64,000 nucleotides of DNA, from NCBI GenBank assembly GCA_965205505.1, contig CBDBHB010000009.1, positions 2,112,001 through 2,176,000 of the forward strand, written 5' to 3'. Within the stretch, counting starts at the first letter, position 1. The number at the start of each line of letters is the position of its first letter. The notes beneath the pieces are model-generated. The model was given only the letters and a program-made list of their open reading frames with translations. It made no database searches and was not told the origin of the DNA. The DNA is from Acidobacteriota bacterium (GTDB taxonomy: Bacteria > Acidobacteriota > UBA890 > WLXD01). The position numbers and the translations under genes were made by a program. Shown piece after piece: positions 43,758 through 60,956 of the stretch.

Positions 43758-44996
43758 ATGTCACTAAAGCTGTTCCGCGAAGTCCTGGCCGGTCGCCAGC
43801 GACTACCACGTATGTGGCGCCAGCACTCGCTGCGGGACAGCTATGCGGCGGTCATCATCGGGGGTGGTGCGCATGGGCTTGCGTGCGCCTACCACCTCGC
43901 CAAAGACCACGGCATCACTGATGTTGCGGTCGTCGAAAAGACCTACATCGGTTCGGGTGGGAGCGGGCGCAATACCGCCATCGTACGTAGCAACTACCTG
44001 ACGCCGGACGGGGTGCGTTTCTACGACGCCAGCCTGAAGCTCTACGAAGACCTGGCCCGTGACCTCGACTTCAACGTCATGCTGGGGCAGCGAGGACACT
44101 TGACGCTGGCACACAGCGACTCCTCGGTGATCACGATGCGGCGACGCGCCGAGACCAACCGGCTGGTCGGCGTCGATTCGAGGCTGATCTTCCCCGAGGA
44201 GATCGCCAAGCTGTGCCCGGATTTGGACCTCAGCGATCGGCCGCGATATCCGATTCTGGCGGCCCTCTACCACCCTCCCGGCGGGATCATTCGCCATGAC
44301 GCGGTGGTGTGGGGCTACGCCCATCAGGCCGACGCGCGTGGCGTGCATATCCACCAGAACACCGCCGCCACCGGAATAGACATCGAGAACGGCAAGGTCA
44401 CCGGCGTCCAGACCACACGGGGACGGATCAAGACCGACACCGTGCTCAACGCTACCGCCGGTTGGGGGGCGATCATCTCCGACATGGCAGGCGTGAAGCT
44501 CCCCATGTCGACGCGCCCGCTGCAGGCATTCGTCACCGAGCCACTGAAGCCGTTCCTCAACGTGGTGATCGTCTCCGGCAGCCTGCACGCCTACGTCAGC
44601 CAGTCGGATCGCGGTGAGCTCGTCTGCGGCGGCAGCGTCGACCCGTACGCCTCGTATTCGATGAACTCGTCGCTCGACTTCCTCGAGACGCTGGCAGGGC
44701 ACCTGCTGGCGCTGTTCCCGTGCCTACCGAAGGTGCGTGTCCTTCGACAGTGGGCCGGGCTCTGTGACATGACGCCCGACTACAGCCCGATTATGGGCAC
44801 GACCCCGGTGGAGGGGTTCCACATCGATCTGGGTTGGGGCACCTATGGCTTCAAGGCGTCGCCGATTTGCGGCAAGACCTTGGCCGAGTTGCTTGCTACC
44901 GGGCGTACACCCGATCTGATCCGCCCATTCCGGCTGTCTCGATTCTCCGAGCACGATCTCGTCGGAGAGGGCGGTGCCGCCTCGGTTGGACATTGA
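43758..44996 (+). CDS. soxB: Sarcosine oxidase beta / N-methylglutamate dehydrogenase MgdA-like flavoprotein
   Basis: IGGGAHGLA, GRNTAIVRSNY, RHDAVVWGYA, LQAFVTEP and WGTYGFKA motifs. Confidence 0.9.
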   Translation: MSLKLFREVLAGRQRLPRMWRQHSLRDSYAAVIIGGGAHGLACAYHLAKDHGITDVAVVEKTYIGSGGSGRNTAIVRSNYLTPDGVRFYDASLKLYEDLARDLDFNVMLGQRGHLTLAHSDSSVITMRRRAETNRLVGVDSRLIFPEEIAKLCPDLDLSDRPRYPILAALYHPPGGIIRHDAVVWGYAHQADARGVHIHQNTAATGIDIENGKVTGVQTTRGRIKTDTVLNATAGWGAIISDMAGVKLPMSTRPLQAFVTEPLKPFLNVVIVSGSLHAYVSQSDRGELVCGGSVDPYASYSMNSSLDFLETLAGHLLALFPCLPKVRVLRQWAGLCDMTPDYSPIMGTTPVEGFHIDLGWGTYGFKASPICGKTLAELLATGRTPDLIRPFRLSRFSEHDLVGEGGAASVGH

Positions 44997-45042
44997 TGCG
45001 AGCAGTGAGGCGAGCGCTGATGCACAGGAGCAGGAGGGCGCC

Positions 45043-45342
45043 GTGCTGCTGCTGACCTGTCCCAATTGCGGCCCGAGGAACGTGAGCGAGTTCCACTTCG
45101 GCAACGAGTACAATCCCCGGCCGGCGGATCCGGCCGCCGCCAGCGAAGCCGAGTGGGTCGACTACCTGCATCTGCGCAACAACAAGGTGGGGGTACAGAA
45201 GGAGTGGTGGCACCACGGCACCGGCTGCGGCCTGTGGTTCCTTGCCGAGCGACACACCAAGACGGGCGAGGTATTGCGCACCTACCTGTGGCGTCCAGAT
45301 GGCGACGCGGGTCCGGATTCTGAAACAGGGGCGAAGCCGTGA
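45043..45342 (+). CDS. soxD: Sarcosine oxidase delta subunit-like protein
   Basis: CPNCG...EF..G...RP...WWHHGTGC zinc site; GTG start after GGAGG. Confidence 0.88.
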   Translation: MLLLTCPNCGPRNVSEFHFGNEYNPRPADPAAASEAEWVDYLHLRNNKVGVQKEWWHHGTGCGLWFLAERHTKTGEVLRTYLWRPDGDAGPDSETGAKP

Positions 45343-48239
45343 AGCGTCTGCCTGCCGGTGGCACTTCGATCGACCGATCGTCGAGCCTGGAGTTCACCTT
45401 CGACGGCAGGAAGGTGATGGCGCACCATGGCGACACGATCGGCTCGGCGCTGGCGGCGTCGGGCGTGCGGGTGATCAGCCGGTCGTTCAAGTACCACCGG
45501 CCTCGGGGTCTGCTTTGTTGCTCGGGCCACTGTCCTAACTGCCTGGTTCAGATAGGCGACGAGCCCAACGCCCGCGCCTGCATGCGGGCGGTGGAAGAGG
45601 GCATGCAGGTGCGTTCGCAGAACGCCTGGCCTTCGCTGCGGTTCGACCTCCTGTCGTTGTCGCGGTTCGCGTCGCGCTTCATGACCGCCGGTTTCTACTA
45701 CAAGACGTTCATCCGGCCGAAGTGGCTGTGGCCCTTCTACGAGCATGTGTTGCGCAACGCTGCCGGCCTCGGCGTGGTCGACCCGAAAACCCCGCGCGGC
45801 AGGTACGACAAGCGCTACCTGCACGCCGACATCGTGGTTGCCGGCGGCGGCCCGGCGGGGATCAGCGCGGCGCATGCGGCCGGTAAGAGCGGCGCGCGCG
45901 TGCTGCTGATCGACGAGAACGCTGAGCTCGGCGGCCATCTCAGGTTTGCCGGCGCGCGACCGGACTCCGAGACGGCCGCGGTCGATCGACTGCGAAGCGG
46001 GCTCGAGGGCATGGACAATGTCGAGGTGCTGACCAATACCTCGGTGCTGGGCTGGTATCGGAACGATTGGCTAGCAGCGAAATCAAGTAACCGCCTCTTC
46101 AAGATTCGCCTGGGTTCGCTGGTGGCGGCAACCGGGGCTTTCGAGCGGCCGCTGCAGTTCGAAAACAACGATTTGCCCGGGGTGATGCTGGGCGGCGCCG
46201 TTCGACGACTGCTGCACCAGTTCGGTGTGGTCGCCGGCCAGCGGGCGTTGGTCGCCACTGCCAACGACGACGGCTGGCACATCGCCGCCGATCTGCGTGC
46301 CGCGGGGGTGGAGGTGGCTGCGATCGTCGACGAGCGCCCTGCCGAGGCGTGCACGAGCCCGCACGGCGAGGCGCTGGCGGCACAAGGAGTGCCGGTCCAC
46401 TACCAGCACACGGTGGTCAAGGCGGTCGGGGGCAAGGGTGTTACTGCGGCCATCATCGCTCAGACCGCCGGCGGCGATGGCGTGGACAAGGGAACTTACA
46501 AGACGGTCGCCTGCGACCTGCTGGTGGTCAGCGTCGGCTGGACGCCGGACACTGACCTCACACATCTTGCCGGCGGCAAGACTCGCTATGACGCCGATCG
46601 CGCCGAGATGCTTCCGACCGAGCTGCCGTCTCATATTCACGTCGTCGGCCGCGCTGCCGGGACGCACGAGCTGGCGGCGGAGCTCCTGGAGGGGGCGATT
46701 GCGGGCCGGGGGGCGGCTCACCGGCTGGGAATCGGGCTGCAGCCGGACGCCGCGCAGGCGGTTGAGCTGCAGCGGCTCAAGAGCTCCGAGCCGCGGCGCA
46801 GCTCGCTGCGCGTGAGCATCCCCGGCGGTAAGCCGAAGAAGCGCTTCGTGTGCCTGTGCGAAGACGTCACGGAGGAGGACATCCTCGCGACCATCGCCGA
46901 AGGGTTCGACAGCATGCAACTGCTCAAGCGCTACAGCACCGTGTCGATGGGGCCCTGCCAGGGCAAGATGTGCTCGATGGCCGCCATCCAGATCTGCGCC
47001 CGGGCGACGGAGCGTTCGATCCCGGACACCGGCACAACGACTTCGCGACCGCCGGCGACGCCGGTTTCACTCGGCACGCTGGCCGGCCAGGAGATGGAGC
47101 CGGTTCAGCTTGGCGCGCTGCACGACTGGCATCTGGCAAACGGCGGCAAGCCGATGGTTGCGGGGGGTTGGATTCGCGCCGAGCACTATGGCGATGCCAT
47201 CGCCGAGGTCAAAGCGGTGCGGGACGCGGCGGGCCTGATCGACGTCAGCTCGCTCGGGAAGCTTCGCCTGACCGGCCCCGGCGTGCCGGACTTGCTGCAA
47301 CGCGTCTACATCAACAAGTGGAGAAAGCTGGGTGTCGGCCAAGCGCGCTACGGTGTGATGTGCAACGACGAAGGCATCGTGCTCGACGATGGTGTCTGCG
47401 CCCGCGTCGGCGAGCAGGAGTGGTACATGAGCACCACTTCCTCCGGTGCGACCGGTATGTACGACTGGATGCAGTGGTGGATCCAATCGGGCTGGGGGGA
47501 AGGTATCCACCTGACCAACGTGACCGAGGCGTTCGCGGCAATGAACCTCGCTGGTCCGCGTACGCGCGAGGTTCTTGCCGACCTTACCGATGTCGACCTG
47601 TCCAACGAGGCGTTCCCCTACATGGGGGTTCGCAGCGGCGCGGTGGCAGGAGTGCCGTGCCGGCTGCTGCGCATCGGTTTTACCGGCGAGCTGTCCTACG
47701 AGATCCACTGCCTGTCGGGCTACGCCGTACACCTTTGGGAGGCGCTGATCGCCGCAGGTCAACCACACGGCATCAAGCCGTTCGGTGTCGAGGCGCAGCG
47801 TGTATTGCGGCTCGAGAAGGGCCATATCATCGTTGGCCACGACACCGACGGGCTCACCGATCCGATCATGGCGAACATGGAATGGGCGGTGAAGCTGGAC
47901 AAGTCCGATTTCCTCGGGATGCGACACCTGAGTCGGGTCGCAGAGCATGGGCCGCATCAGCGCCTGGTCGGCTTCAAGGTCCCCGCCGGCGGCGCCAAGC
48001 CCGAGGAAGGGATGCAAATCGTGGCTGGATCCAACGGCAAGCGGGAGGTAATCGGCTGGGTCACCTCCTGCCGCTTGAGCCCGACCCTCGGAGAGATCAT
48101 CGGGTTGTGCTGGCTGCCGGCGGAGCTGGGTGATCGCGAAGCTGCCGAGTTCACCATCCACGTCGACGGCCGATCGCAGCCGGCGCGCGTTTGGCACGGC
48201 GCTTTCTACGACCCCGAGGGCAAGAGGTTGCGCAGGTGA
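45339..48239 (+). CDS. soxA: Sarcosine oxidase alpha / MgdC-like subunit with Fe-S cysteine motifs and a GcvT domain
   Basis: RSFKYHRPRG, CCSGHCPNC, GGGPAG, CLCEDV, MGPCQG..C, IGFTGELSYE and LRLEKG motifs. Confidence 0.9.
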   Translation: MKRLPAGGTSIDRSSSLEFTFDGRKVMAHHGDTIGSALAASGVRVISRSFKYHRPRGLLCCSGHCPNCLVQIGDEPNARACMRAVEEGMQVRSQNAWPSLRFDLLSLSRFASRFMTAGFYYKTFIRPKWLWPFYEHVLRNAAGLGVVDPKTPRGRYDKRYLHADIVVAGGGPAGISAAHAAGKSGARVLLIDENAELGGHLRFAGARPDSETAAVDRLRSGLEGMDNVEVLTNTSVLGWYRNDWLAAKSSNRLFKIRLGSLVAATGAFERPLQFENNDLPGVMLGGAVRRLLHQFGVVAGQRALVATANDDGWHIAADLRAAGVEVAAIVDERPAEACTSPHGEALAAQGVPVHYQHTVVKAVGGKGVTAAIIAQTAGGDGVDKGTYKTVACDLLVVSVGWTPDTDLTHLAGGKTRYDADRAEMLPTELPSHIHVVGRAAGTHELAAELLEGAIAGRGAAHRLGIGLQPDAAQAVELQRLKSSEPRRSSLRVSIPGGKPKKRFVCLCEDVTEEDILATIAEGFDSMQLLKRYSTVSMGPCQGKMCSMAAIQICARATERSIPDTGTTTSRPPATPVSLGTLAGQEMEPVQLGALHDWHLANGGKPMVAGGWIRAEHYGDAIAEVKAVRDAAGLIDVSSLGKLRLTGPGVPDLLQRVYINKWRKLGVGQARYGVMCNDEGIVLDDGVCARVGEQEWYMSTTSSGATGMYDWMQWWIQSGWGEGIHLTNVTEAFAAMNLAGPRTREVLADLTDVDLSNEAFPYMGVRSGAVAGVPCRLLRIGFTGELSYEIHCLSGYAVHLWEALIAAGQPHGIKPFGVEAQRVLRLEKGHIIVGHDTDGLTDPIMANMEWAVKLDKSDFLGMRHLSRVAEHGPHQRLVGFKVPAGGAKPEEGMQIVAGSNGKREVIGWVTSCRLSPTLGEIIGLCWLPAELGDREAAEFTIHVDGRSQPARVWHGAFYDPEGKRLRR

Positions 48240-48952
48240 GCGCCGCGAAGCCGGCTTTACTGACGCCCTTGTACGGAGTGACCAAGGGTCTCGGGGCGCG
48301 ATTCGTGGAAACCGGCAACGGCTGGCTCATCGCAGATGCCTATGCCGAGCCGGAGTCGGAGCAGGCCGCGGCGCGCGACCGGCTGGCGATCGCGGACATC
48401 TCGGCGGATGGCAACTTGAGGATCGAGGGCGCCGATGCGGAAACCACACTGCGCGATGCCTACGGGCTGCCGGCACTCGCGATCGGCGAAAGCGCGCCCG
48501 TCGGGAACGGACGCTGTTATCGTTTGCGTGCCGACTTGTTCTCGGTCATCACCGCCCCCGGGGTTGAGGAAACGACCTTCGGCGCGATCGAGTCTGCTGC
48601 GCAATCGGCGGGTCATCGGATCACCGTGACGGTGATGACGCACGGGCAGGCCAGTGTCCGTATAATCGGCCCGCGCGTAGCGGAACTCATGAGCAAACTG
48701 TGCGGCCTGGACTTCAGCCCCGCGGCGTTTCCTGACGGGGTAGCCAAGCGCACGAGCTTCGCGAAGACGGCACAGCTTGTCGTTCGCCGTGACATTGGTC
48801 AGCTTCCCGCCTTCATGGTGGTCGGAGCGCGGTCGGTCGCGGCCTACGTTTGGGAGACGATTCTGGAGGCCGGCGAGGAGTACGGCATCACGCCGATCGG
48901 GCAAGATGCGCTGTCAAAGATCATTGCGGACAGTACTGAGAGGGGAACATGA
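48236..48952 (+). CDS. soxG: Sarcosine oxidase gamma / GcvT-like subunit
   Basis: IRIIGP..ELMSKLC.LD and RSVAAYVW-type motifs; GTGA overlap with soxA. Confidence 0.8.
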   Translation: MSAAKPALLTPLYGVTKGLGARFVETGNGWLIADAYAEPESEQAAARDRLAIADISADGNLRIEGADAETTLRDAYGLPALAIGESAPVGNGRCYRLRADLFSVITAPGVEETTFGAIESAAQSAGHRITVTVMTHGQASVRIIGPRVAELMSKLCGLDFSPAAFPDGVAKRTSFAKTAQLVVRRDIGQLPAFMVVGARSVAAYVWETILEAGEEYGITPIGQDALSKIIADSTERGT

Positions 48953-50412
48953 CCGATCTAGAAGCCTATGTTCGTGCCGACGGCCGTGACGAACTGGTCA
49001 AGGAAGTTCGTAAGCAGATCGAAGCACTCGGGATCGAGTACATCTACTACCAGTTTGTTTCGGTAACTGGCCGCATCGTTGGCAAGGGCGCTCCGGCAGA
49101 CCACTGGGAAAAGTTTGCGGAAAACGGCTTTCAGCTCGTCTACGGCTCCACCGCCAACCTGTTCACCGATCGGCACGGCAACTACATCGGCTACGGACCG
49201 GAATCATCCGAGCTCGTCGGCATCCCCGATGCGGAGACGTTCGTCCAATTGCCCTGGGAAAAGCGTATCGGGCGCGTCTTCTGCACCTGCTTCCGCAACC
49301 GCGAAGAGCCGGAGAACCCGGGGGCCTTTCTGACGTCGGACTGTCGCGGCAACCTGCGCCGCACGCAGGAGCAATTCACCGCCGATCATGGACTCGAGAT
49401 GCGCGCGGGTACCGAGCCGGAGATGATGTGGTTGAAGAAGGGTGCCGACGGTCGGCCGGACGGCGGCGTTACGCGGCCCTTCTGCTACCACATCGATCAG
49501 TTCGAAACGCTGCGTCCGGTGGTGCTGCAGGTGGTCGAGTACAGCCGTGCCATGGGTCTCGACATCATCCAGGGCGATCACGAGGACGCTCCCGGACAGC
49601 TCGAGCTCAACTTCACCTACGACGACGCGCTCCGAAATTGTGACCGGCTGACCACGTATCGACAGATCTGCGCCGAGGTCGCCAAGCAGCACAACATGAT
49701 CGCCTGCTTCATGTCGAAGCCGTTCATGGGGGTGTCGGCATCGGGGTGCCACCACAACGTCTCGTTGTGGCGCGGCGGCGAGAACGCCGTCAACAGGCTC
49801 GGCCAGGACCCGGTGCCCGGTATCGAGGAGAACTTCACGTACCGGCGGGGCGGTGAGAACGTCTTCCTCCCGGAGGCCGGGCAGCGCATCCCGTCGGAGC
49901 TCGGACTTCAATGCCTGGGCGGATTGAAAGAGCATCTGCCGGCGCTAACGGCGATCGGCTGCTCGACGGTGAACTCTTACCGTCGCCTGTGTGAGACCGG
50001 GTTCTGGGCACCGATCTTCGCCGACTGGGGCTTCCAGAACCGCACCTGCGGGCTGCGCGTTTCTTCGCCCGACCGCTTCGAGTACCGCGCCGTCGACTCG
50101 ATGGTGAACCCGTACCTCATGGCGTCGGGGATTCTGGCGGCGTTTGACGACGGCATCCGCACCAAGGCCGACCCTGGCCCGCCCGAGGAACGCAACATCT
50201 ACGATGCCATCCAGGAGGGCAAGGAGGTGGTCAAGCTGCCCTTGTCGCTCGGTGCTGCCCTGGATACGCTTGCCGCTGACGAGGTCGTGAAGTCAGCGTT
50301 GCCCGGCGATATGTACCGGGTCTTCATGCACTACAAGACCGATGAGTGGGAGCGGTTCCTCGCTCAGACCACCGAATGGGACCTCGAAAACTACCTGGAC
50401 TGCTTGCCGTAG
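48949..50412 (+). CDS. gmaS: Glutamine synthetase-like protein, probable gamma-glutamylmethylamide synthetase
   Basis: GTEPE, DHEDAPGQLE, FMSKPF, SGCHHN, QNRT and FEYR motifs; adjacent to mgsABC. Confidence 0.75.
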   Translation: MTDLEAYVRADGRDELVKEVRKQIEALGIEYIYYQFVSVTGRIVGKGAPADHWEKFAENGFQLVYGSTANLFTDRHGNYIGYGPESSELVGIPDAETFVQLPWEKRIGRVFCTCFRNREEPENPGAFLTSDCRGNLRRTQEQFTADHGLEMRAGTEPEMMWLKKGADGRPDGGVTRPFCYHIDQFETLRPVVLQVVEYSRAMGLDIIQGDHEDAPGQLELNFTYDDALRNCDRLTTYRQICAEVAKQHNMIACFMSKPFMGVSASGCHHNVSLWRGGENAVNRLGQDPVPGIEENFTYRRGGENVFLPEAGQRIPSELGLQCLGGLKEHLPALTAIGCSTVNSYRRLCETGFWAPIFADWGFQNRTCGLRVSSPDRFEYRAVDSMVNPYLMASGILAAFDDGIRTKADPGPPEERNIYDAIQEGKEVVKLPLSLGAALDTLAADEVVKSALPGDMYRVFMHYKTDEWERFLAQTTEWDLENYLDCLP

Positions 50413-50436: not shown

Positions 50437-51384
50437 ATGTGTGGAATCGCAGGAATCATTCACCGTAACAAGACCGGCAACGTGGGCGCCGAAATGACCG
50501 GCATGCTTCAGGCCATGAAGCACCGCGGCCCGGATTCGACCGGCTTCGCCTTTTACGGAGTGCCGACTGAAGGCGAACTGCTGTTGCGTTTCAAGGTGGC
50601 CGAGAGCGACGATCTCGCCTCCGGGTTCGAGATTCACGAGGCGATCAAGGAGCGTCGGGCGCAGGTGGACGAGCGCATCGAGTCGATGGGCGGCGAGATC
50701 CAGGTGGCCGAGGCATCGACTGAGTACGCCTTCCTCTATCGCCTTCGATTCGATCCCAAGCTCGATAGTCTGGTACGTCTGGCCGACTACATCGAGGACG
50801 TCGAGGGTGCCGAGGTTCTCTCGATCGGCAATGCGCTCGAGCTCGTCAAGGACCTGGGCGACGCCACCGAGGTCAGCGATCAATACGAGATGGGCAACTT
50901 CGTCGGCACTCACGCCATCGGTCACACACGAATGGCGACGGAATCGGACGTCGACATCCGCTCGGCACATCCCTACTGGGCCTATCCGGTGAGCGACGTC
51001 TGCGTGGTGCACAACGGTCAGCTCACCAACTACTGGAGCAAGCGGCGTGAGCTGGAGCGAACCGGCCACCGCTTTCTCTCCGATTGCGACTCGGAGCTGA
51101 TCGCCGTCTACGTCGCCGAGCTGACCGAACGCGGCAGGTCACTCGAAGAGGCGATGCACCAGTCGGTCGACGAGCTCGACGGGGTGTTCAGCTACCTGGT
51201 TGCTACCAGCGACGCGCTGGGGCTGGCCAAGGACACGATGGCCGCCAAGCCCATGGTCTTGTACGAAGGCGACGACTGCATCGTAATGGCATCCGAGGAG
51301 GTCGCGATCCGCACCGTTTTTCATGAGGAAATTGATACCTTCGATCCGTACGCTGGTGAGGTACTGGTGTGGAGCACCAACTAG
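50437..51384 (+). CDS. mgsA: N-methylglutamate synthase subunit A (class II glutamine amidotransferase, GlxB)
   Basis: MCGIAG, HRGPDS, GHTRMATES, HNGQLTN and DSE motifs. Confidence 0.82.
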   Translation: MCGIAGIIHRNKTGNVGAEMTGMLQAMKHRGPDSTGFAFYGVPTEGELLLRFKVAESDDLASGFEIHEAIKERRAQVDERIESMGGEIQVAEASTEYAFLYRLRFDPKLDSLVRLADYIEDVEGAEVLSIGNALELVKDLGDATEVSDQYEMGNFVGTHAIGHTRMATESDVDIRSAHPYWAYPVSDVCVVHNGQLTNYWSKRRELERTGHRFLSDCDSELIAVYVAELTERGRSLEEAMHQSVDELDGVFSYLVATSDALGLAKDTMAAKPMVLYEGDDCIVMASEEVAIRTVFHEEIDTFDPYAGEVLVWSTN

Positions 51385-51571: not shown

Positions 51572-52408
51572 ATGGCAAAGCAATCGATAAGTGAACCGAT
51601 CGACGTGCACGCGGAACCGCTGAAAGGCCGTTCCCACAAGACCTTCTTTCGGGCCGAGGAGGGGGAGAATCTCGTCTATCCGGACAGTATCGAGGTCGAC
51701 TTCGATCGCTCCGCCGAATTCGATGCCGCCGAGATGGATACCAGTGCGATCAACGTGCGCATCCGCGAGCTCATCGGCGAGGGGCATGGCCACATCATCG
51801 TCCGCAACCCTGGGGCCAAGCACTCCCTCGGGGTCGGAATCCTCAACCGGCTGAAGCTGGAGTTCGATGGCTCGCTCGGCTACTTCGGGATCGGCTTGAA
51901 CGATGGCCCGAACGTACGAATCCGGGGTCGGGTCGGCTGGTCGTGTGGCGAAAACATGATGGCAGGCACCATCGTGGTGGAGAAGAACGCGGGGTCGTCG
52001 TTCGGCGCCGCCATCCGTGGAGGTGATCTCGTCTGCCACGGCGATGTCGGAGCGCGAACCGGGATCAATCAGAAGGGCGGAACGATCATCGTCGGTGGAC
52101 GCACCGGAATGTTGTCCGGGTTCATGATGCAGCGCGGGCGCATGATCGTGCTCGGCGACGCCGGCGATAGCCTCGGCGACTCGATGTACGACGGAACCAT
52201 TTACGTTGGTGGTGAGATCGCGTCGCTCGGCATCGACGCGGTACCCGGCGAGATGACCGATCACGAGGCGGCCTTCTTGCAGCGCAAGCTCGACCTCTAC
52301 GGTCTGGAGGCGCCCAACGGAGTGGAGAAGCTGCAGAAGATCGTCGCAGGCAAACAGCTGTGGAACTACGACAACCTCGAACCCACTGAAAAGAAGATCG
52401 TGCTGTGA
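51572..52408 (+). CDS. mgsB: N-methylglutamate synthase subunit B (GXGXG, GlxC)
   Basis: NPGAKHSLGVG, GENMMAG and GDSMYDG motifs; GXGXG repeats. Confidence 0.82.
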   Translation: MAKQSISEPIDVHAEPLKGRSHKTFFRAEEGENLVYPDSIEVDFDRSAEFDAAEMDTSAINVRIRELIGEGHGHIIVRNPGAKHSLGVGILNRLKLEFDGSLGYFGIGLNDGPNVRIRGRVGWSCGENMMAGTIVVEKNAGSSFGAAIRGGDLVCHGDVGARTGINQKGGTIIVGGRTGMLSGFMMQRGRMIVLGDAGDSLGDSMYDGTIYVGGEIASLGIDAVPGEMTDHEAAFLQRKLDLYGLEAPNGVEKLQKIVAGKQLWNYDNLEPTEKKIVL

Positions 52409-53748
52409 CCGACAACGGCAAGCGTAACAAGGACATTCTGGGGCAGAACTTCGTGTTCAAGCCCAGCGTCATCGATGACATCCACATCAAGTCGGATCTG
52501 GGCCGTTACCGCATGCGCGGTATGGCGCTGTTCAAGAAGATCCCGACCTGGGACGACCTCACCTTTCTGCCCGGCACGCTCACTCGCTTCGTCATCGAGG
52601 GCTACCGCGAGAAGTGCCTCACGGAGACGGTGATCGGCCCCAAAGCGAAGCGTCCGCTGGTGATGGACATCCCGATCTACATCACCGGGATGAGCTTCGG
52701 CGCGCTGTCCTACGAGGCGAAGGTGGCGCTGGCGCGCGGTGCCACGATGGCCGGAACGGCTACATGCTCGGGAGAGGGCGGCATGCTGCCCGACGAGCGC
52801 CGCTACTCATCGAAGTGGCTCTACCAGTGCATCCAGTCGCGCTACGGATTCAACCCGCACCACTTGCGCCTTGCCGATGCCTGCGAGTTCTTCATCGGAC
52901 AGGGCTGCAAGGTGGGTCTCGGCGGCCACCTTATGGGGCAGAAGGTCACCGATCAGGTGGCGGAGATGCGCAACCTGCCGGCGGGCATCGACCAGCGCTC
53001 GCCAGCACGGCACCCGGATTGGCTGGGACCGGATGACCTGGCGTTGAAGATCGACGAGATCCGCGAGGCCACCAACGGCGAGATCCCTATTCAGTTGAAG
53101 CTCGGATCGGCGCGTGTCTATGACGACGTTCGCATGGCCGCCAAGACGGGCCCGGACAGCATCTACCTTGACGGTATGGAAGGCGCCACCGGCGCCGGGC
53201 CCCATCTGGCCACCGAGGAGACCGGCGTTCCGGGGATCGCTGCGATCCGGCAGGCACGGCACGCGCTCGACGACGTCGGCAAGACGGGCGAGATATCGCT
53301 GGTCTACGCTGGAGGCATCCGCAATGGGGCCGATGTGGCCAAAGCGCTGGCGCTGGGTGCCGACGCCATTGCGATCGGTACGGCGGCGATGGTGGCGCTC
53401 AACTGCAACCGCGACATCCCCGAAGCAGACTTCGAGGGAACGATCGGCGTGCCGGCGGGCTACTGCTACCACTGCCACACCGGTTTGTGCCCCGTGGGTG
53501 TCGCCACTCAGGATCCCGAGCTGCGCAAGCGCTTGGATCCCGACGAAGCGGCGATTCGCGTGTTCAACTTCCTCCACACGCTGGCCATCGAATGTCAGAT
53601 GATGGCGCGCGCCTGCGGCAAGACCAACGTCCACTCACTGGAGCCGGAAGACCTGGCGGCGCTGACCTCCGAGGCCTCGGCCATGGCGGAGGTGCCCATT
53701 GCGGGCACTCGCTACACCGTCGGCCACCCTGAAATGACCCGATTCTGA
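52405..53748 (+). CDS. mgsC: N-methylglutamate synthase subunit C (FMN/Fe-S glutamate synthase-like, GlxD)
   Basis: GMSFGALS, GEGG, GQGCKVGLGG, SPARHPD and CYHCHTGLCP.G.ATQ motifs. Confidence 0.85.
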   Translation: MTDNGKRNKDILGQNFVFKPSVIDDIHIKSDLGRYRMRGMALFKKIPTWDDLTFLPGTLTRFVIEGYREKCLTETVIGPKAKRPLVMDIPIYITGMSFGALSYEAKVALARGATMAGTATCSGEGGMLPDERRYSSKWLYQCIQSRYGFNPHHLRLADACEFFIGQGCKVGLGGHLMGQKVTDQVAEMRNLPAGIDQRSPARHPDWLGPDDLALKIDEIREATNGEIPIQLKLGSARVYDDVRMAAKTGPDSIYLDGMEGATGAGPHLATEETGVPGIAAIRQARHALDDVGKTGEISLVYAGGIRNGADVAKALALGADAIAIGTAAMVALNCNRDIPEADFEGTIGVPAGYCYHCHTGLCPVGVATQDPELRKRLDPDEAAIRVFNFLHTLAIECQMMARACGKTNVHSLEPEDLAALTSEASAMAEVPIAGTRYTVGHPEMTRF

Positions 53749-53769: not shown

Positions 53770-54186
53770 GTGAGCGACGAAGCCCCAAAGAACGGCGAGT
53801 CCCAAGCGGAGGACGTCGACTACTACCTCAAATCGAGCGGGCTGGATACCGACCGTGAGCTCGAGATCGGTCAGCACATCGGCTACCGGTACGACGTCAA
53901 CCTGGTGCCGGACTACTCGCTGATGACCCCGCTGCTCAAGAGGTACATCGAACACATGGGCTGGCCGGACCTCAACTGGATGGAAGATGTTCACATGGGC
54001 TACGAGGAAGGTCGTTCGGCCGTCTTCGACCGCAACATCAACGGCTGGGTGGCAGTCCCGGAAGATATGGAGCTGCCCGACTCGCAGCAGGAACGCGACA
54101 TGGTGGCGCGCGAGCTGCTGCTGAAATTCCAAATGTCACCGCAGCACCCGCTCTACGACCTGGGAGAGCGGCACAAGAAGTTTTGA
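53770..54186 (+). CDS. Hypothetical 138-aa acidic soluble protein
   Basis: Operon-like spacing and codon usage matching its neighbours; no recognisable motif. Confidence 0.7.
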   Translation: MSDEAPKNGESQAEDVDYYLKSSGLDTDRELEIGQHIGYRYDVNLVPDYSLMTPLLKRYIEHMGWPDLNWMEDVHMGYEEGRSAVFDRNINGWVAVPEDMELPDSQQERDMVARELLLKFQMSPQHPLYDLGERHKKF

Positions 54187-54256
54187 GGCGTTCTTCTCTC
54201 CAGCGGGGTCGCGACGCGGCCCATATCGATCGACGAGGGTCGATCGCGAGGCCGAC

Positions 54257-55654
54257 GTGAGCGAAACCAAGAAGTGGGGCGCCGACGAGTTCTGGGGGCT
54301 TTCCTATGACTGGGATCCGCAATGGATCCTCACCGCGGAGCAGCAGGAGCTTCAGGCGTCGCTGATCGATCTCTGCCAGAGCACGATGCGTGAGAACGCC
54401 GTGGCGAGCGATCGCGACCTGATCTTTCCGCGCAAGAACTTCGAGGCCCTCGCATCCCTCGGCCTTCTCGGCCTGATAGTGCCGAAGGAGCTTGGCGGGC
54501 GCGGCGAGAGCCATACTTGCATGGCCATGGTGGTCGAGACCATCGCCCGGTATGGATGCGCCAGCACGGCGATGTGCTACACGATGCACGTCAGCGCCGT
54601 CGCCGCGGCGATGCTCCGGGCACACGGTAACGAGACCATTCAGAGCCTGATGCCGCGTCTCGACGACGAGGTCCTGATCGGCACCCTGTCGTACTCGGAT
54701 CCCGAGACGGGCTCGCACTTTTGGTACCCGTTCTCCTCCAGCGCGGAGCGTGTCGAGGGCGGCTGGAAGGTCAACAAGAAGTCATCGTGGACTACTTCAG
54801 GGGGGTTCGCCGACTGGTACGTCATACAGACCACCAGCCCGGACTTCGACGGCGACTACTCGGACCTGTCGGTTTTCCTGATCATGGCCGACGAGATCAG
54901 TGCCGATCCTTCGACCTGGGACGGGCTTGGACTGCGCGGCAACCAGTCGGGGCCGCTGCTGGTGGAGGATAGGACGATTCCCGAGGGTCGCCTTATCGGC
55001 CCGACCGGCGACGGCGCGAGCTCTAATGACGAGGCCGTCGATCCCTTCTTTCTGGCGTGCTCATCGTCCTGCTGGAACGGCATATCGATGGGTCTGATCG
55101 ATATTGCGAAGGGGCATACGACCAAGAAGAAGCACGTCGACGTGGGCATGAGGGTCTGCGATTACCCGACCATTCAGGATTACATTGGCGAGGCCGTGAT
55201 CGATACCAACACGTCGCGCGCGTTCGTCTACCAGTTGACCGCGGCGATAGACAAGAAGACCAACGACTGCGACTGGTCGATCCACGAGGACGTCGCCGTG
55301 CTGCCTCGGTCGACCGTGCTGCACTGGATGTGGCAAGTGAAGTTCACCGCCGCCAAGAACGTCGCCAAGGTTGCCGACAAGATGCTCCACGCTTGTGGCG
55401 GAACCGGCTACAAGCCGGGCCTGGGCATCGAGCGTTACCTTCGCGACGGCAAGGCTGGTTGGGTGATGGGCCCGACCAACGAGGTACTGCGGCAGTTTGT
55501 CGGCAAGGCGGTGTTGTTGGGGTTCGATTCGCTCGACTACTGGAACCAGTCGGTCAACGAGCGCGTGCTCCACAACGAGATCAAGAAGATGGACGCTGCG
55601 GCCAAGAGCGTGCTGGCGCAGAAGCTGCTCGCGGAGGCCGAGGAATCGCAGTGA
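54257..55654 (+). CDS. Acyl-CoA dehydrogenase-fold flavoprotein lacking the canonical catalytic Glu
   Basis: GLIVPKELGG, LSYSDPETGS, GLGLRGNQS and IERYLRD motifs; VMGPTNEV in place of IxEGTxEI. Confidence 0.85.
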   Translation: MSETKKWGADEFWGLSYDWDPQWILTAEQQELQASLIDLCQSTMRENAVASDRDLIFPRKNFEALASLGLLGLIVPKELGGRGESHTCMAMVVETIARYGCASTAMCYTMHVSAVAAAMLRAHGNETIQSLMPRLDDEVLIGTLSYSDPETGSHFWYPFSSSAERVEGGWKVNKKSSWTTSGGFADWYVIQTTSPDFDGDYSDLSVFLIMADEISADPSTWDGLGLRGNQSGPLLVEDRTIPEGRLIGPTGDGASSNDEAVDPFFLACSSSCWNGISMGLIDIAKGHTTKKKHVDVGMRVCDYPTIQDYIGEAVIDTNTSRAFVYQLTAAIDKKTNDCDWSIHEDVAVLPRSTVLHWMWQVKFTAAKNVAKVADKMLHACGGTGYKPGLGIERYLRDGKAGWVMGPTNEVLRQFVGKAVLLGFDSLDYWNQSVNERVLHNEIKKMDAAAKSVLAQKLLAEAEESQ

Positions 55655-57996
55655 TCCTGTCGCAGCTCGAGGGGCCGCGCTGGGTCGCGGGAGGCCTGCT
55701 CCCCGAGGCGCCCGGCAGGGAGCGATATCGAGTCGCAGGCGGTGGTGCCACCGTCGTCGCGCTGGCGGCCGGTGACCGCATCGACATCACCGACGTCGAG
55801 GGCGGGCAGCGCTGCGAGCTGGCGGTCTTCTCTCCAACCGGCGGCGAGGACAGCGCCGCTCTCAATGTCGCAGCCGACAGCCAGCTGGGCGTACTGGGAA
55901 TTGCGCAAGCTGAGCGGCAAGCCGATACGGACGCCGCGGTCGCCGCTTTGCTGGCGCGTGGTATCGATCCACGTGGCGCGCCGGCACTGCAGCTGTTCCG
56001 CGGCGATGGGCCTCCGGGAGCGGCGGAGTCGTTCACGGCGGAGCGCGACGTCATCTGCATTGTTGGAGCCCCGGGTGGTCCGATGCGCGTCGATGCGCAG
56101 GATCCGCCGACCGACCTGCGGGTGATGGTTCAGCGAGCCCGGGTGACCGAGACCCCAGAGGTACCGCTGCCAACACCACTTGGCGATATGCGTCTCGACA
56201 TGCGCGTCGAGCGCGCCGCTGCATGCGCCTACGAGGTGAAGGCCGGCGAGTACATCCAGGTTATCGACGTGGCCGGACGGCAATGCTCGGATTTTCTCGC
56301 GTTTCGTTCCGGCGCCTTGCAAAACGGGGTGGAGAAAGGTCTCGACGCCACGGCTACTCGAACGCTCATGGGCTCAGCTTATCCGGCACCCGGCCTATAC
56401 TCGAAATTCTATGATCACGACCTGCAGCCGCTTGTCGAGGTCGTGCGCGATACGGTCGGACGCCACGACACCTTCGGGCTGGCATGCACGGCGAAGTACT
56501 ACGAGGACATGGGCTACTTTGGCCACGCCAATTGCTCTGACAACTTCAGCGCCGCCTTGGATCCCTACAGCATCGCATCGCGGCGAGGTTGGCCGGCGAT
56601 CAACTTCTTCTACAATACGCGCATCGACGACAACAACGTCCTGTACCTCGACGAGCCGTGGTCGCGGCCGGGCGACTACGTGTTGCTACGGGCGCTGGAC
56701 GATCTCGTCTGCTTGACCTCGGCTTGTCCCGACGACATCGATGCTGCCAATGCATGGAATCCAACTGAGGTGCATGTCCGTGTGTATCCGGCCAAGAGCT
56801 CTTTTTCGATGGGGATCGCACACCGGATGATTCCTGACGCCGAGCCCAAGCTGACGCGCGAGACCGGGTTCCACCCGCGTACCTCGGCGTTGACTCGGAA
56901 GTTCACCGAATATGGCGGCTACTGGCTGCCGACGGAATTCACCGGCTACGGCGCCATCAAGGAATACTACGCCTGCCGCGAGGGCGCGGTGGTGCTGGAT
57001 CTGTCGGCCCTTCGCAAGTTCGAGGTTCTCGGCCCCGGTGCCGAAGCACTGATGCAGGCCACGCTCACCCGCAATGTGCGCCGCGTAGCCGTCGGTCAGG
57101 TGTCATATACGTCGATGTGCAATGAGACCGGCGGGCTGCTGGACGACGGCACGTTGTTCCGCCTCGGCGCCGACAACTTTCGTTGGATCGGCGGCAACGC
57201 GACGGACGGCATCTGGCTGCGTGAACAGGCCGAGAAACAGCGGCTCAAAGTGTGGGTCAAGTCGTCGTCGGAACAGCTTCACAACATCGCCGTACAGGGC
57301 CCGAGTAGCCGAGATATCCTTCGAGAGGTTGTCTGGACCGCGCCCACCCAGCCGAGCATCGACGAGCTCAAGTGGTTCCGCTTTACCGTCGGCCGCGTAG
57401 CGGCGGCAGACGGCACGCCGCTGCTGGTATCCCGAACCGGTTACACGGGCGAGCTCGGCTATGAGGTCTGGTGCCACCCCGACGATGCCGTTGCCGTTTG
57501 GGATGCGATCTGGGAGGCGGGCGAGCCGCACGATCTGGCGCCGCTAGGCCTGGATGCTCTCGACATCTTGCGCATCGAGTCGGGGCTGATCTTCCCAGGG
57601 TACGAGTACGACGACCAGGTGGATCCGTTCGAAGCAGGCATCGGGTTCACCGTCGACCTCGAGAGCACGGACGACGATTTCGTTGGCCGGGCAGCCCTCG
57701 TCGAGCGCAAAGCGCACCCGCAGCGACTGTTGGTCGGCCTGGAGCTCGAAGGCAGCGAGACCGGTGGTCACGGCGACGGCGTGTACGCCGGTCGCAGTCA
57801 GGTGGGAGTGATCACCAGCGGCACGCGCTCTCCCATCCTGCGAAAGAACATCGCCCTGTGCCGGTTGGCCAAGGAGCACGCCGACCCTGGCACGGAGCTG
57901 GAAGTCGGTAAGCTCGACGGGCATCAGAAGCGCATTGCGGCGACCGTGGTGCAGTTCCCGTTCTATGACCCCGGCAAGAAACGTCCTCGTAGCTAA
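55651..57996 (+). CDS. tdm: TMAO demethylase-like protein (DUF1989 plus GcvT aminomethyltransferase domains)
   Basis: GTG start overlaps the ACAD TGA. QCSDF and DTVGRHDTFGLAC motifs; C-x15-C-x63-C (ACT..., NCSDNF, SACPDDID) zinc triad; SRTGYTGELGYE and LRIESG. Confidence 0.82.
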   Translation: MILSQLEGPRWVAGGLLPEAPGRERYRVAGGGATVVALAAGDRIDITDVEGGQRCELAVFSPTGGEDSAALNVAADSQLGVLGIAQAERQADTDAAVAALLARGIDPRGAPALQLFRGDGPPGAAESFTAERDVICIVGAPGGPMRVDAQDPPTDLRVMVQRARVTETPEVPLPTPLGDMRLDMRVERAAACAYEVKAGEYIQVIDVAGRQCSDFLAFRSGALQNGVEKGLDATATRTLMGSAYPAPGLYSKFYDHDLQPLVEVVRDTVGRHDTFGLACTAKYYEDMGYFGHANCSDNFSAALDPYSIASRRGWPAINFFYNTRIDDNNVLYLDEPWSRPGDYVLLRALDDLVCLTSACPDDIDAANAWNPTEVHVRVYPAKSSFSMGIAHRMIPDAEPKLTRETGFHPRTSALTRKFTEYGGYWLPTEFTGYGAIKEYYACREGAVVLDLSALRKFEVLGPGAEALMQATLTRNVRRVAVGQVSYTSMCNETGGLLDDGTLFRLGADNFRWIGGNATDGIWLREQAEKQRLKVWVKSSSEQLHNIAVQGPSSRDILREVVWTAPTQPSIDELKWFRFTVGRVAAADGTPLLVSRTGYTGELGYEVWCHPDDAVAVWDAIWEAGEPHDLAPLGLDALDILRIESGLIFPGYEYDDQVDPFEAGIGFTVDLESTDDDFVGRAALVERKAHPQRLLVGLELEGSETGGHGDGVYAGRSQVGVITSGTRSPILRKNIALCRLAKEHADPGTELEVGKLDGHQKRIAATVVQFPFYDPGKKRPRS

Positions 57997-58005
57997 GGGT
58001 TTTCG

Positions 58006-59346
58006 ATGAGTTCTTTACCGGAAGCAAGCAAGTACGTCGTCATCGGTGCGGGTATTCACGGCCTGAGCACCGCCTATCATCTGGCGCTTGAGCTGAAAGC
58101 ACGGGGGCAGGGAAGTGGGGCCGACATTATCGTCCTCGACAAGGAAGGCGTCGGCGTCGGAGCGTCGGGGATTGCCTGCGGCGTAATCCGCAATAACTAT
58201 TTTCAGCCGGCAATGCGCGAGCTAATGGCGCACAGCGTCGAGGTATGGGACAGCGACCCGGAAGCGTATAGCTATCATCCGGTTGGCTACATGCAGATCA
58301 GCCCGGCCGTGATGGAGGCCGATGTCGCGCAGATCTACGAGCAGCAGAAGGCGATCGGCTACGAATCCGAGCTCATTGTCGGAGCGGCCGAGTCCGAGAA
58401 ATACATGAAGGGACTGTTCCACGACTGGAGAGCTCGCGGAATCACCTCCGTCTTGCACGAGAAGAAGGGTGGTTACGCCAACAACATGGCGTCGATGCTC
58501 GGGCTTGCCGGCAAGGCGGAAGGCGTCGGGGTGACGATCCACTCCGGGGTGAAGGTTGCCGGCTTCCAGCACACCGATGCCGGAATCACCGCCGTGGAGA
58601 CCGACCAGGGGACGATCCGCACCGATTACGTCGTCGTGGGTGTGGGCCCGTGGGTGAAGCACATCTGGGACATGCTCGAGCTGCCCAAGACCATCACCGT
58701 CAACGACAACGGCACGGTGCACGAGAACATCCCAATGTGGCGTTACTGGTGCCTGCAAGAGGGCACGCTCGGCGTCGAGCCTGATCTGCAGCGGACAAAC
58801 GACGGCGAGTTGCCCCCGGTGGTGCACATCGACACCGACGCGCCGCTCTACTCCGACCTCGATGGCTCGCTGATTACCGACCAGATATGGGGCATCTACT
58901 ACAAACCGGACTTCAACTTCGGCGGCGTCCAAGGTGGCGCCATGCCCTACAAGGTCGACAAGGATGCCGATGATGTGGCAGTCGATCCATACGGACCCAA
59001 GTCGCCCGACTTCATCGTCGGCGAGGATTTCGCCAACATGTGGTGCTCGGCGCTGGCGTTTTGTCAGGAGCGCTTCGTTGGCAAGTCCGGTCTGTTCCGT
59101 GGCGAGGAGCCGTCAGGCGGCATCGGCTCGTTCACGGCAGACAGCTTCCCGGTATTCGACGTCTTCCGCGGCAACTGCTACTTCGTCGCCGACTCCAACC
59201 ACGGCTACAAGATGCTCGGTGTCGGCAAGCTCGTGGCGGAGGAGATCGTCGGCAATCGGAGCGCGTTGCTCGAACCGTTTCGCTTCTCCCGCTATGCCGC
59301 GGGGAAGTTGCACCCGGTGTCCAACAGCCCGTACCCCTGGAGCTAA
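58006..59346 (+). CDS. DAO/sarcosine oxidase-family FAD-dependent oxidoreductase, substrate unknown
   Basis: IGAGIHGLSTAYHL, GASGIACG and DSNHGYK motifs. Confidence 0.88.
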   Translation: MSSLPEASKYVVIGAGIHGLSTAYHLALELKARGQGSGADIIVLDKEGVGVGASGIACGVIRNNYFQPAMRELMAHSVEVWDSDPEAYSYHPVGYMQISPAVMEADVAQIYEQQKAIGYESELIVGAAESEKYMKGLFHDWRARGITSVLHEKKGGYANNMASMLGLAGKAEGVGVTIHSGVKVAGFQHTDAGITAVETDQGTIRTDYVVVGVGPWVKHIWDMLELPKTITVNDNGTVHENIPMWRYWCLQEGTLGVEPDLQRTNDGELPPVVHIDTDAPLYSDLDGSLITDQIWGIYYKPDFNFGGVQGGAMPYKVDKDADDVAVDPYGPKSPDFIVGEDFANMWCSALAFCQERFVGKSGLFRGEEPSGGIGSFTADSFPVFDVFRGNCYFVADSNHGYKMLGVGKLVAEEIVGNRSALLEPFRFSRYAAGKLHPVSNSPYPWS

Positions 59347-59451: not shown

Positions 59452-59762
59452 ATGGAAAACGAGTTCACCGCCCTTACCGTCATCTTCACGGAGTTCTACT
59501 ACTGGGTTTGTATCGTCCTGATGTTCCTCATCCACGTCGGCTTCTGCCTGTACGAGGTCGGAGTATCGCGAAAGAAGAACATGATGCACACCCTGATGAA
59601 GAATGCGATGGTGATCCCGTTGATCACCGTGACGTTCTTCTTCTTCGGATGGTGGATCTACTTCGCGCTGCAGAACGGACCGGGCATTACCGGCGGCTTG
59701 ATCTCCGCTCCGTTCGCGGTCCCATGGAGCGAGCTCATGGGCACCCACATGGGCGGCCAACC
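59452..59762 (+). pseudogene. amt: Ammonium/methylammonium transporter (Amt), truncated by an IS
   Basis: MFLIHVGFCLYEVGVSRKKN...MKN and FFGWWIY motifs; only about 104 codons before the IS end. Confidence 0.85.
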
Positions 59763-59796
59763 TGACCTGACCCCACGGTTAGTACCACGTCTTATC

Positions 59797-60690
59797 TCAG
59801 TAACTCGGTGCTGACAAGGGGTTGTTGAGGCCGGCGAAGCGGAGCGTAGCCGGCTTCAACAACAGCGCCTCCGGGGCCGGTGGTCGGTAGCCCAACGAGC
59901 TGTGCGGTCGCATGCGGTTGTACTGCTGCCTCCATCTCTCGATCAGAACCTTTGCCTCCTTGAGCGTGTAGAAGATCTCGCCGTTGAGCAGCTCGTCTCG
60001 GAGCTTGCCGTTGAAGCTCTCCACGTAGCCGTTCTCCCACGGCGAGCCCGGCTCGATGAACAGCGTGCCCACACCGAGCCTACCGAGCCAGTCGCGAACC
60101 GCCTCGGCGGTGAACTCCGGTCCGTTATCGGACCGGATGTGCTCAGGTATGCCCCGGTGCACGAACAACCACCCGAGCCGCTCGAGCACGTCCTCACAGT
60201 TGAGCTTCCGTGCCACGTCGATCGCCAGGCTTTCTCGTGTGTACTCATCGACGATCGTCAGCAGCCTCATAGCCCGACCCTCGTGCGTCCGGTGATGAAC
60301 GAAGTCATACGCCCAGACGTGATCTTTGCGCTGTGGTCGCAGCCGGATGCACGAGCCATCGCTGAGCCACAGCCGGGCTCGTTTGGGCTGCTTTGTCGGT
60401 ACTTTCAGCCCCTCACGCCTCCAGATACGCTGCACTCGTTTGTGGTTCACCCACCAGCCCTCCATACGCAACAACGCCGTCACTCGCCGATACCCGTAGC
60501 GCCCGTATTGTCGGGCTAGATCCACGATCCGCTCCGTCAACATCTGCTCATCGCCCGGTTCTCTTGGCATGTACCTGTGTGTCGTGCGTGGTTGTTTCAG
60601 TACCCGGCACGCCCGCCTCTCGGAGACGCCCAGCCGCCCCTGTACATGCGCCACCGCCTCGCGCCGTCGAGCTGGGCTCAGAAGTTTCCC
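59797..60690 (-). CDS. IS3 OrfB DDE transposase, reached by -1 frameshift
   Basis: [35 protein letters not shown] and RPHSSL motifs; slippery G_GGA_AAC at 60684-60690. Confidence 0.92.
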
Positions 60691-60956
60691 TCCGCGACTT
60701 CCTTCAGGATCGACAGGTCGAGCTCTTTCTCCGCCACCAGTTTCTTGAGCCGGGCGTTTTCTTTCTCCAGCTGCTTGAGCCTTCTGGCCTGGTTGACCTT
60801 CAGCCCCCCGTACTCCCGCCGCCACCGATAGTAGGTGTGCTCGGTGATCGCTAGCTTGCGGCAGGCATCCTTGACCGTCCCGCCTTGCGCCAGCTCCACT
60901 TCAGCCTCCCGGAGCTTGCGTACGATCTGCTCGGCGCTGTGCCTCTTCGTCGGCAT
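60678..60956 (-). CDS. IS3 OrfA (HTH)
   Basis: [22 protein letters not shown] and LEKENARLK motifs. Confidence 0.92.

Follow-up and report, generated by a model that had tools for sequence, protein, structure and literature searches.

Which enzyme supplies trimethylamine N-oxide (TMAO) to the demethylase Tdm in a genome where no trimethylamine (TMA) monooxygenase of the Tmm type can be found? The question was raised by a 64,000-nucleotide (nt) stretch of an Acidobacteriota genome (contig CBDBHB010000009.1, positions 2,112,001 to 2,176,000), hereafter the window, in which tdm overlaps the end of a gene for a protein with the acyl-CoA dehydrogenase (ACAD) fold. We call this protein ACADL. An initial annotation, made from the sequence alone, had proposed a non-homologous TMA N-oxygenase, perhaps working with a 138-amino-acid (aa) neighbour, or another enzyme feeding an N-methylated substrate into the pathway. 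The comparative analysis described here bore out its sequence observations, supported the oxygenase in each of the computational checks it had proposed and argued against the partner. On balance, ACADL probably provides the oxygenase of a two-component TMA N-oxygenase that works with reduced flavin and replaces Tmm without being homologous to it. The two genes at the centre of this proposal are as follows.

54257 to 55654, plus strand: ACADL, 465 aa, with the Pfam domains Acyl-CoA_dh_N, _M and _1, lacking a glutamate at both known catalytic positions
55651 to 57996, plus strand: Tdm, TMAO demethylase with DUF1989 and GCV_T domains, 1211 bits to NF053776

The ACADL protein and its Tdm partner

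The motif GWVMGPTNEV of ACADL occupies the place where the ordinary ACAD of the window (19143 to 20315) has [10 protein letters not shown]. HMMER alignments to solved ACADs placed Gly405 in the column of the canonical catalytic Glu. The alternative Glu of the isovaleryl-CoA dehydrogenase (IVD) type, found in LDYER of 4o5m, faced Phe264 in the alignment. Gly405 and Phe264 were invariant in all 22 aligned family members. Three acidic residues close to the active-site helix (D258, E259 and D262) and many Trp, Tyr and Asp residues were likewise invariant in the family. The fold, the VMGPTNEV reading and the missing Glu had been recorded in the initial annotation, and the Pfam domains and the two substituted positions bore them out. 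With the three-domain ACAD fold but without the catalytic Glu, ACADL would not be an ordinary dehydrogenase.

An AlphaFold (AF2) model with a predicted local distance difference test (pLDDT) value of 92.7 showed the ACAD fold. The acyl-CoA dehydrogenases 1ws9 and human IVD (1ivh) share this fold, with a TM-score of about 0.9, and the three Pfam domains. They differ from ACADL, which has no Glu at either position and is found in a context of methylated-amine and flavin reductase genes, not of β-oxidation. Three parts were specific to ACADL and absent from the outgroup, namely an N-terminal extension (residues 1–25), an insertion (338–351) and a C-terminal extension (427–465). The best NCBIfam match was Rv1679/FadE16 (NF049984), which aligned with residues 43–419 at 211 bits and did not reach its cut-off of 600. 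The nearest outgroup sequences resembled ACADL in mostly lacking the canonical Glu (13 of 21 had Ala there), but they were only about 26–33% identical.

The group D monooxygenases (DszC, SfnB, HsaA, C2-HpaH, the nitrososynthases ORF36 and KijD3, and the DMSO monooxygenase ACIAD0428) also combine the ACAD fold with the loss of the dehydrogenase base. They work with a reductase of the PF01613 type and oxygenate N or S heteroatoms, as is predicted for ACADL. ACADL differed from them in its extensions and the 338–351 insertion, and its scores of 34 to 62 bits reached none of the equivalog cut-offs of 430 to 850 (DszC 34.5 against 850, SfnB 62.1 against 431, HsaA 61.8 against 450, C2-HpaH 40.5 against 650). 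To our knowledge, TMA is not a substrate of any group D member, nor does any of them have a link to Tdm. Searches with Pfam and NCBIfam found only ACAD domains in ACADL and no domain like that of the flavin-containing monooxygenases (FMOs; PF00743, the Tmm type). ACADL could thus be at most a functional analogue of Tmm, and not a member of the Tmm family.

The TGA stop codon of ACADL (55652–55654) overlaps the GTG start codon of tdm (55651–55653) in the sequence gcaGTGAtc. Translation from this GTG gave a protein of 781 aa, which exceeded the cut-off (1100 bits) of the NCBIfam model for TMAO demethylase. It aligned over its whole length with Paracoccus TDM, whose structure is solved (9q59), at 889 bits. 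The zinc site of the latter consists of C285, C301 and C365, and two Asp residues are also described in the structural report (PMC13619132). C279, C295 and C359 of the window Tdm aligned with the three cysteines of this 3Cys:Zn motif. D214 and D361 were also kept, and Y321 stood in place of the Paracoccus F327. Both the overlap and the Cys triad had been pointed out in the initial annotation of a Tdm-like gene. Judged by its equivalog score, architecture and 3Cys:Zn site, the 781-aa protein is a bona fide TMAO demethylase.

Genomic linkage and distribution of the ACADL family

A word-seeded search returned 1533 relatives of ACADL among 8000 scored candidates. The best 120 had identities of 74–100% with 95% or more of the query aligned, and their sources gave them no other name than 'acyl-CoA dehydrogenase family protein' or 'AidB-like'. 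When 50%-identity representatives were searched exhaustively, the family formed a tight island, with one representative at 74% and a few full-length ones at 53, 48, 44 and 37%. Below this island lay ordinary ACAD-like proteins at about 30–36% identity. From one-genome-per-species contigs we took the best 80 of 348 stretches encoding an ACADL relative. Their hosts were Acidobacteriota (the closest, 90–91% identical), Latescibacterota, Gemmatimonadota, many Alphaproteobacteria (including many Rhodospirillales- and Dongiaceae-like), Candidatus Udaeobacter, Obscuribacterales, Armatimonadota and filamentous cyanobacteria. The family was about 70–90% identical across at least seven phyla, and it was carried by the isolates Leptolyngbya sp. 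JSC-1, Stenomitos frigidus ULC18 and Virgifigura deserti, the first two of which lack Tmm.

The linkage to tdm was conserved in this set. By tblastn, tdm was found in the fetched flank, within 10 kb, in 54 of the 80 loci, and in 38 of the 45 loci having at least 5 kb on both sides. Several arrangements of the two genes occurred, and the same 4-nt overlap was seen in Acidobacteriota and Armatimonadota. At the genome level, Tdm was present at E<=1e-120 in 48 of 50 other ACADL genomes, or 49 of 51 with the window's genome. The partner Tdm exceeded the NF053776 equivalog cut-off in 37 of the 50; the cyanobacterial partners were shorter, at about 620–640 aa, and started near profile position 147. 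Co-occurrence of the homologues with tdm and gmaS had been suggested as a check in the initial annotation, and these counts answered it for tdm; the homologues were closely linked to methylamine genes as well.

We also examined an even set of 401 alphaproteobacterial genomes for tdm, Tmm and ACADL. A full-length or split Tdm was encoded in 33 of them (26 over the cut-off and 7 at 816–1083 bits). ACADL was found in 10 of the 401 genomes, nine of which belonged to the 33 tdm genomes (Fisher p=5e-10). The copy in the remaining genome (G098) and an additional one in G032 represented a 62%-identical paralogue subfamily (L107:14842–16206 and L108:9934–11316). No Tdm, flavin reductase or methylamine gene was found within about 10 kb of these paralogues, which may act on a different substrate.

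A flavin reductase was the second recurrent partner. All open reading frames (ORFs) of the 80 loci were clustered; only the cluster representatives were scanned with Pfam, and other members were assigned by blastp. Once ACADL, tdm and shadow ORFs are set aside, the cluster found in the largest number of loci was a protein of about 173 aa, here FLR, present in 42 of the 80 (L014 and L040 among them with an adjacent pair). Forty of these 42 loci had FLR on the strand of ACADL, and the median gap was 297 nt. The FLR representative matched PF01613 (Flavin_Reduct) at 154 bits, and in NCBIfam it was nearest to the reductase components of HpaH, HsaAB and StyAB, below their cut-offs. The gene order was FLR-ACADL in Alphaproteobacteria, ACADL-tdm-FLR in Latescibacterota and Gemmatimonadota, and ACADL-FLR-tdm in Obscuribacterales. 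Moreover, in three representatives ACADL was fused to FAD_binding_6 and NAD_binding_1 domains, a reductase of the Fre/FNR type. These were P0127 (770 aa), P0137 (882 aa) and P0133 (truncated, 562 aa), with identities of 53% (P0127) and 37%, and they could be self-sufficient enzymes.

A dehydrogenase linked to electron-transfer flavoprotein (ETF) has no use for a flavin reductase, but a two-component monooxygenase of group D does. The adjacency of FLR and the fusions would be unexpected for an ETF-linked enzyme, and therefore favoured a two-component monooxygenase. A dedicated reductase, as in group D, was thus found for the ACADL family but not for the window itself. As the initial annotation had remarked, no flavin reductase is visible there; the only gene of the PF01613 type found in the genome lay on another contig (C1:12903–13355), and its product was 50% identical to the linked FLR. 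Within C1:10591–13371 (L082:5591–8371), this gene adjoined one for a 756-aa fusion of a pyridine-nucleotide-disulphide oxidoreductase domain with AIR-synthase-type (SelD-like) domains.

The distribution of ACADL was nearly complementary to that of Tmm. PF00743 was dropped as a Tmm marker, with unrelated FMOs at 185–254 bits and a true Tmm at 114. NF058570 was used instead; it gave 861 bits for the true Tmm and about 100 for unrelated FMOs. The window's genome (96.3% complete, 9 contigs) had no match to either model, so the lack of tmm that the initial annotation had noted in the operon extended to the whole assembly. Tmm exceeded its cut-off in only one of the 51 ACADL genomes, and the Tmm-less ACADL genomes spanned seven phyla. 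Among the 33 tdm genomes of the class sample, 16 had Tmm, nine had ACADL, one had both and nine had neither. The anti-correlation with tmm that had been proposed as a check was thus observed, with a Fisher p of 0.017 (0.003 without the chosen centre genome of the sample), in statistics that ignore shared ancestry.

In the Tmm genomes, tmm mostly lay within a few kb of tdm, in clusters of the form DAOL-gmaS-mgsABC-p138 ... tmm-tdm, where DAOL is a DAO-family flavoprotein and p138 the 138-aa protein. The place of tmm beside tdm was held by ACADL in the ACADL genomes. The two enzymes are thus alike in adjoining tdm, in belonging to a tdm/gmaS/mgs gene set and in their near mutual exclusion in tdm genomes, and the same reaction, from TMA and O2 to TMAO, is predicted for both. 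They differ in sharing no homology. Tmm, a class B FMO with the fold of that group, uses FAD and NADPH within a single component; ACADL is an ACAD-fold protein and is predicted to use a separate or fused reductase.

The predicted reaction and its rivals

In the proposed mechanism, an NAD(P)H:flavin reductase would supply reduced flavin to ACADL. In the window's genome this might be the unlinked PF01613 protein of contig C1, probably the best guess at present. ACADL would use reduced flavin and O2 to pass one oxygen atom to the amine nitrogen, converting TMA to TMAO. The coupled Tdm would then cleave TMAO to dimethylamine (DMA) and methylene-tetrahydrofolate, and methylamine would be handled by GmaS, MgsABC and the Sox-like N-methylglutamate dehydrogenase of the same operon. 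Tmm itself uses a flavin C4a-hydroperoxide to N-oxygenate a tertiary amine. Two-component enzymes of group D oxygenate small heteroatom substrates, as in the conversion of DMSO to DMSO2 by ACIAD0428 (PMC13352529). In the literature that we searched, whose coverage excluded most subscription journals, no ACAD-fold or two-component TMA monooxygenase was described. The proposed oxygenase would represent a new functional family, in an enzyme class that is already known.

The linkage to Tdm fits an enzyme that makes the substrate of Tdm (TMA to TMAO) and one that consumes its product (DMA) alike, so the step served by ACADL had to be judged from other evidence. DMA oxidation by DmmDABC belongs to the same pathway, and we considered it as the function that ACADL, unrelated in sequence, might replace. 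No NCBIfam model names Dmm subunits, so PF11927 (HODM-alpha, for haem-dependent oxidative N-demethylase) and PF22290 (DmmA-like) served as markers. We take HODM to be the DMA demethylase, of the Dmm oxygenase family. The window's genome had no match to PF11927 or PF22290, in line with the absence of dmm from the operon in the initial annotation.

The most telling locus was L070, from Armatimonadota. Nine consecutive frames, mostly with 4-nt overlaps, encoded in order an mgsA-like protein, an mgsB-like protein, a cupin, a DmmA-like protein (PF22290/PF22289), a Fer2 reductase, HODM-alpha (PF11927, 250 bits), ACADL, Tdm and a 163-aa protein; a permease gene came next. Here the markers of Dmm share the operon with ACADL. 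This locus appears to encode both the DMA and the TMAO steps, and therefore only the conversion of TMA to TMAO would be left for ACADL. A full-length HODM-alpha and Tdm, but no Tmm, also occurred in five other ACADL genomes, namely four of the 51 and G402 of the class sample.

An enzyme acting after Tdm, that is a reduced-flavin DMA oxygenase or N-hydroxylase replacing DmmABC while TMAO is imported, would explain why neither Dmm marker was matched in the window's genome and why HODM-alpha went unmatched in 45 of the 51 ACADL genomes, where the DMA step could be that of ACADL. HODM-alpha above 100 bits was also rarer in ACADL genomes (6 of 58) than in tdm genomes without ACADL (6 of 24), a difference that was not significant (p=0.10). 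On the other hand, Dmm likewise had no match in 12 of the 16 Tmm- and Tdm-containing genomes of the class sample, and such a lack has been described as a known bottleneck (PMC5520151), the 'DMA bottleneck' of marine bacteria. By established chemistry, a flavin hydroperoxide would be expected to N-hydroxylate DMA, with no direct route to methylamine. We consider a DMA-consuming ACADL unlikely, and favour the TMA step because the strong negative association was with Tmm and not with Dmm, because L070 has DmmA-like, reductase and HODM-alpha genes directly upstream of ACADL-Tdm, and because the five genomes with HODM-alpha lack Tmm. Of the two possibilities left by the initial annotation, a TMA N-oxygenase or another enzyme feeding an N-methylated substrate into the pathway, the former was strengthened by L070 and the exclusion of Tmm, and the DMA step became less favoured.

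The substrate might also be broader. ACADL might oxygenate another tertiary amine, or several compounds such as TMA, DMA and other N,N-dimethyl compounds, with Tdm demethylating the N-oxides. This would accommodate the cyanobacterial Tdm proteins, which are 45–50% identical to the window Tdm, have about 145 fewer N-terminal residues and fall below the cut-off. It would also accommodate the extensions and insertion of ACADL, which have no counterpart in known enzymes, and the 62%-identical paralogues unlinked to Tdm. We think it improbable, given that most partner Tdm proteins exceed the TMAO-demethylase cut-off, that the window Tdm retains the TMAO-binding residues of the solved enzyme and that the remaining operon genes handle methylamine only. 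A related and similarly doubtful idea is an iterative machine, in which ACADL N-oxygenates both TMA and DMA and Tdm cleaves both N-oxides, taking TMA to methylamine without Dmm. If true, it would explain the missing HODM-alpha matches, those of the window's genome included, and would be a solution to the DMA bottleneck of marine bacteria. Least credible, in our view, is a dehydrogenase or oxidase with another base, acting on an acyl-CoA, an acyl carrier or a substrate of the nitroalkane type and linked to Tdm through a role other than oxygenation. ACADL is nearest to genuine ACADs in sequence and fold, and D258, E259 and D262 are acidic residues close to the active-site helix. Such an enzyme is very hard to reconcile with the non-acidic residues at both known base positions, with the FLR adjacency and the reductase fusions, or with the lack of recurrent neighbours of acyl-CoA metabolism in the 80 loci, where the representatives of the larger clusters were annotated.

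Several observations weigh against a TMA N-oxygenase, in addition to the unmatched HODM-alpha. ACADL scored about 100 bits to ACAD models in NCBIfam, compared with 62 to SfnB and HsaA and 34 to DszC, and the top Foldseek matches of its model were ACADs with a TM-score of about 0.9 normalised to the target, in a fold search that cannot tell dehydrogenases from monooxygenases. No reductase is adjacent to ACADL in the window or in its closest relatives (L001 and L002), and the sole PF01613 gene of the genome is unlinked to ACADL and stands beside the SelD-type fusion. The association statistics take no account of ancestry, and many of the genomes are metagenome-assembled. Finally, the genome of Virgifigura deserti (G016, which holds L023) encodes Tmm twice, and a pair of tdm and tmm lies there 1.5 kb from FLR-ACADL. 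ACADL and Tmm can therefore coexist.

The second tmm of this genome (L094:15134–18897) was flanked by genes for a GbcA-like Rieske oxygenase (172 bits, under the cut-off) and for a protein of the ferredoxin-reductase type, which suggests a unit that both releases and oxidises TMA. No dmm was found beside it; suf genes and the Rieske oxygenase were present there.

A TMA N-oxygenase of the ACADL type would have consequences beyond this operon. TMA and TMAO turnover is important for marine and soil nitrogen and carbon cycling, for emissions of aerosol-forming amines and for gut-derived TMAO. Surveys of TMA oxidation use tmm as the marker, and if ACADL is truly a second TMA monooxygenase, whole groups have been missed. 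Of the 33 sampled alphaproteobacterial tdm genomes, 9 had ACADL and 16 had Tmm, which puts ACADL at about half the frequency of Tmm. If the proposal holds, ACADL would catalyse the first step of TMA degradation in many lineages from soil, from freshwater and among the cyanobacteria, and TMA would be a new substrate class for ACAD-fold monooxygenases.

The operon and the neighbouring genes

The genes from the soxBDAG (mgdABCD)-like set to a fragment of amt form a contiguous set on the plus strand, from about 43.5 to 59.8 kb, separated by gaps of 9–70 nt or overlapping. A divergent S9 peptidase gene lies upstream. The other members of the set, and the element that ends it, are as follows.

43473 to 44996, plus strand: SoxB/MgdA-like FAD subunit of N-methylglutamate dehydrogenase (PF01266 240 bits, TIGR01373 486 bits)
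44974 to 45342, plus strand: SoxD-like delta subunit (PF04267 101 bits)
45339 to 48239, plus strand: SoxA-like alpha subunit (Fer2_4, SO_alpha_A3 and GCV_T)
48191 to 48952, plus strand: SoxG-like gamma subunit (PF04268, GCV_T)
48949 to 50412, plus strand: GmaS-like gamma-glutamylmethylamide synthetase, type III glutamine synthetase family (PF00120 274 bits)
50437 to 51384, plus strand: MgsA-like (GATase) subunit of N-methylglutamate synthase
51572 to 52408, plus strand: MgsB-like (GXGXG) subunit
52405 to 53748, plus strand: MgsC-like (Glu_synthase FMN) subunit (PF01645 303 bits)
53770 to 54186, plus strand: 138-aa protein without a family match, downstream neighbour of mgsC
58006 to 59346, plus strand: DAOL, 446-aa DAO-family flavoprotein (PF01266 112 bits over residues 10–224, the N-terminal half only)
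59452 to 59814, plus strand: 5' fragment of an Amt-family transporter gene (PF00909 profile positions 4–75 only), cut by an insertion sequence (IS)
59797 to 60825, minus strand: IS transposase (rve integrase core, HTH_21), ending the operon in the present assembly path

These Pfam and NCBIfam assignments agreed with the gmaS, mgsABC and mgd/sox genes named in the initial annotation. The GmaS-like protein was 67–93% identical to the product of the same-position gene in related clusters. The real start of the soxB/mgdA-like gene is probably downstream of 43473, because the profile match begins only at residue 97. Consensus scans for promoters and terminators between 42500 and 60500 gave no excess of sites over shuffled sequence.

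The 138-aa protein had no Pfam or NCBIfam match and no usable protein Atlas match. It followed mgsC in 21 of the 80 ACADL loci and in five of six fetched Tmm-type clusters (L101, L102, L104, L105 and L106); in the sixth (L103) the fetched stretch stops inside mgsA. At L032 and L043, a gmaS-mgs operon with the 138-aa gene after mgsC was divergent from ACADL-tdm. We therefore rejected this protein as a partner of ACADL, since it stays with mgsC where Tmm replaces ACADL or where the operons separate. DAOL was tried as the missing DMA oxidase. It was found in 52 of 80 genomes searched, Tmm-type genomes included, and DAOL and HODM-alpha seldom co-occurred. This candidacy was weakened by the way DAOL travels with gmaS-mgsABC and by the 18 of 37 DAOL genomes of the class sample that fell outside the tdm set, and a role as DMA oxidase now seems unlikely. 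Judged by these gene neighbourhoods, the 138-aa protein and DAOL are members of the gmaS/mgs module and not partners of ACADL. Both were conserved in the gmaS-mgsABC cluster of the Tmm-type Alphaproteobacteria L101–L106, and in one 1.3-Mb Tmm-type alphaproteobacterial genome DAOL directly followed tdm.

Other genes recurred near ACADL in particular lineages. Upstream of FLR-ACADL in Alphaproteobacteria, we noted a divergent protein of about 190 aa without a Pfam family in 21 loci (for example L018:2757–3329 and L042:4748–5104), and a cold-shock-domain protein recurred upstream of FLR-ACADL in 18 loci. Both may be regulators. In filamentous cyanobacteria (L061, L064, L065, L067, L071–L075 and L080), ACADL was followed by a copper amine oxidase gene (PF01179, representative 568 bits). 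The shorter Tdm, gmaS and amt were nearby, and no flavin reductase was found in the flanks. From its gene content, this looks like a cluster for scavenging nitrogen from methylated amines.

At the downstream end of the operon in the window, only the first 120 codons of amt precede the IS. Contig C2 of the same assembly (C2:10433–13200) carries a 100% identical copy, 1762 nt long, of DAOL and the start of amt, after which the contig continues through a complete amt. We therefore read the IS insertion as a strain variant or as one of the assembly paths.

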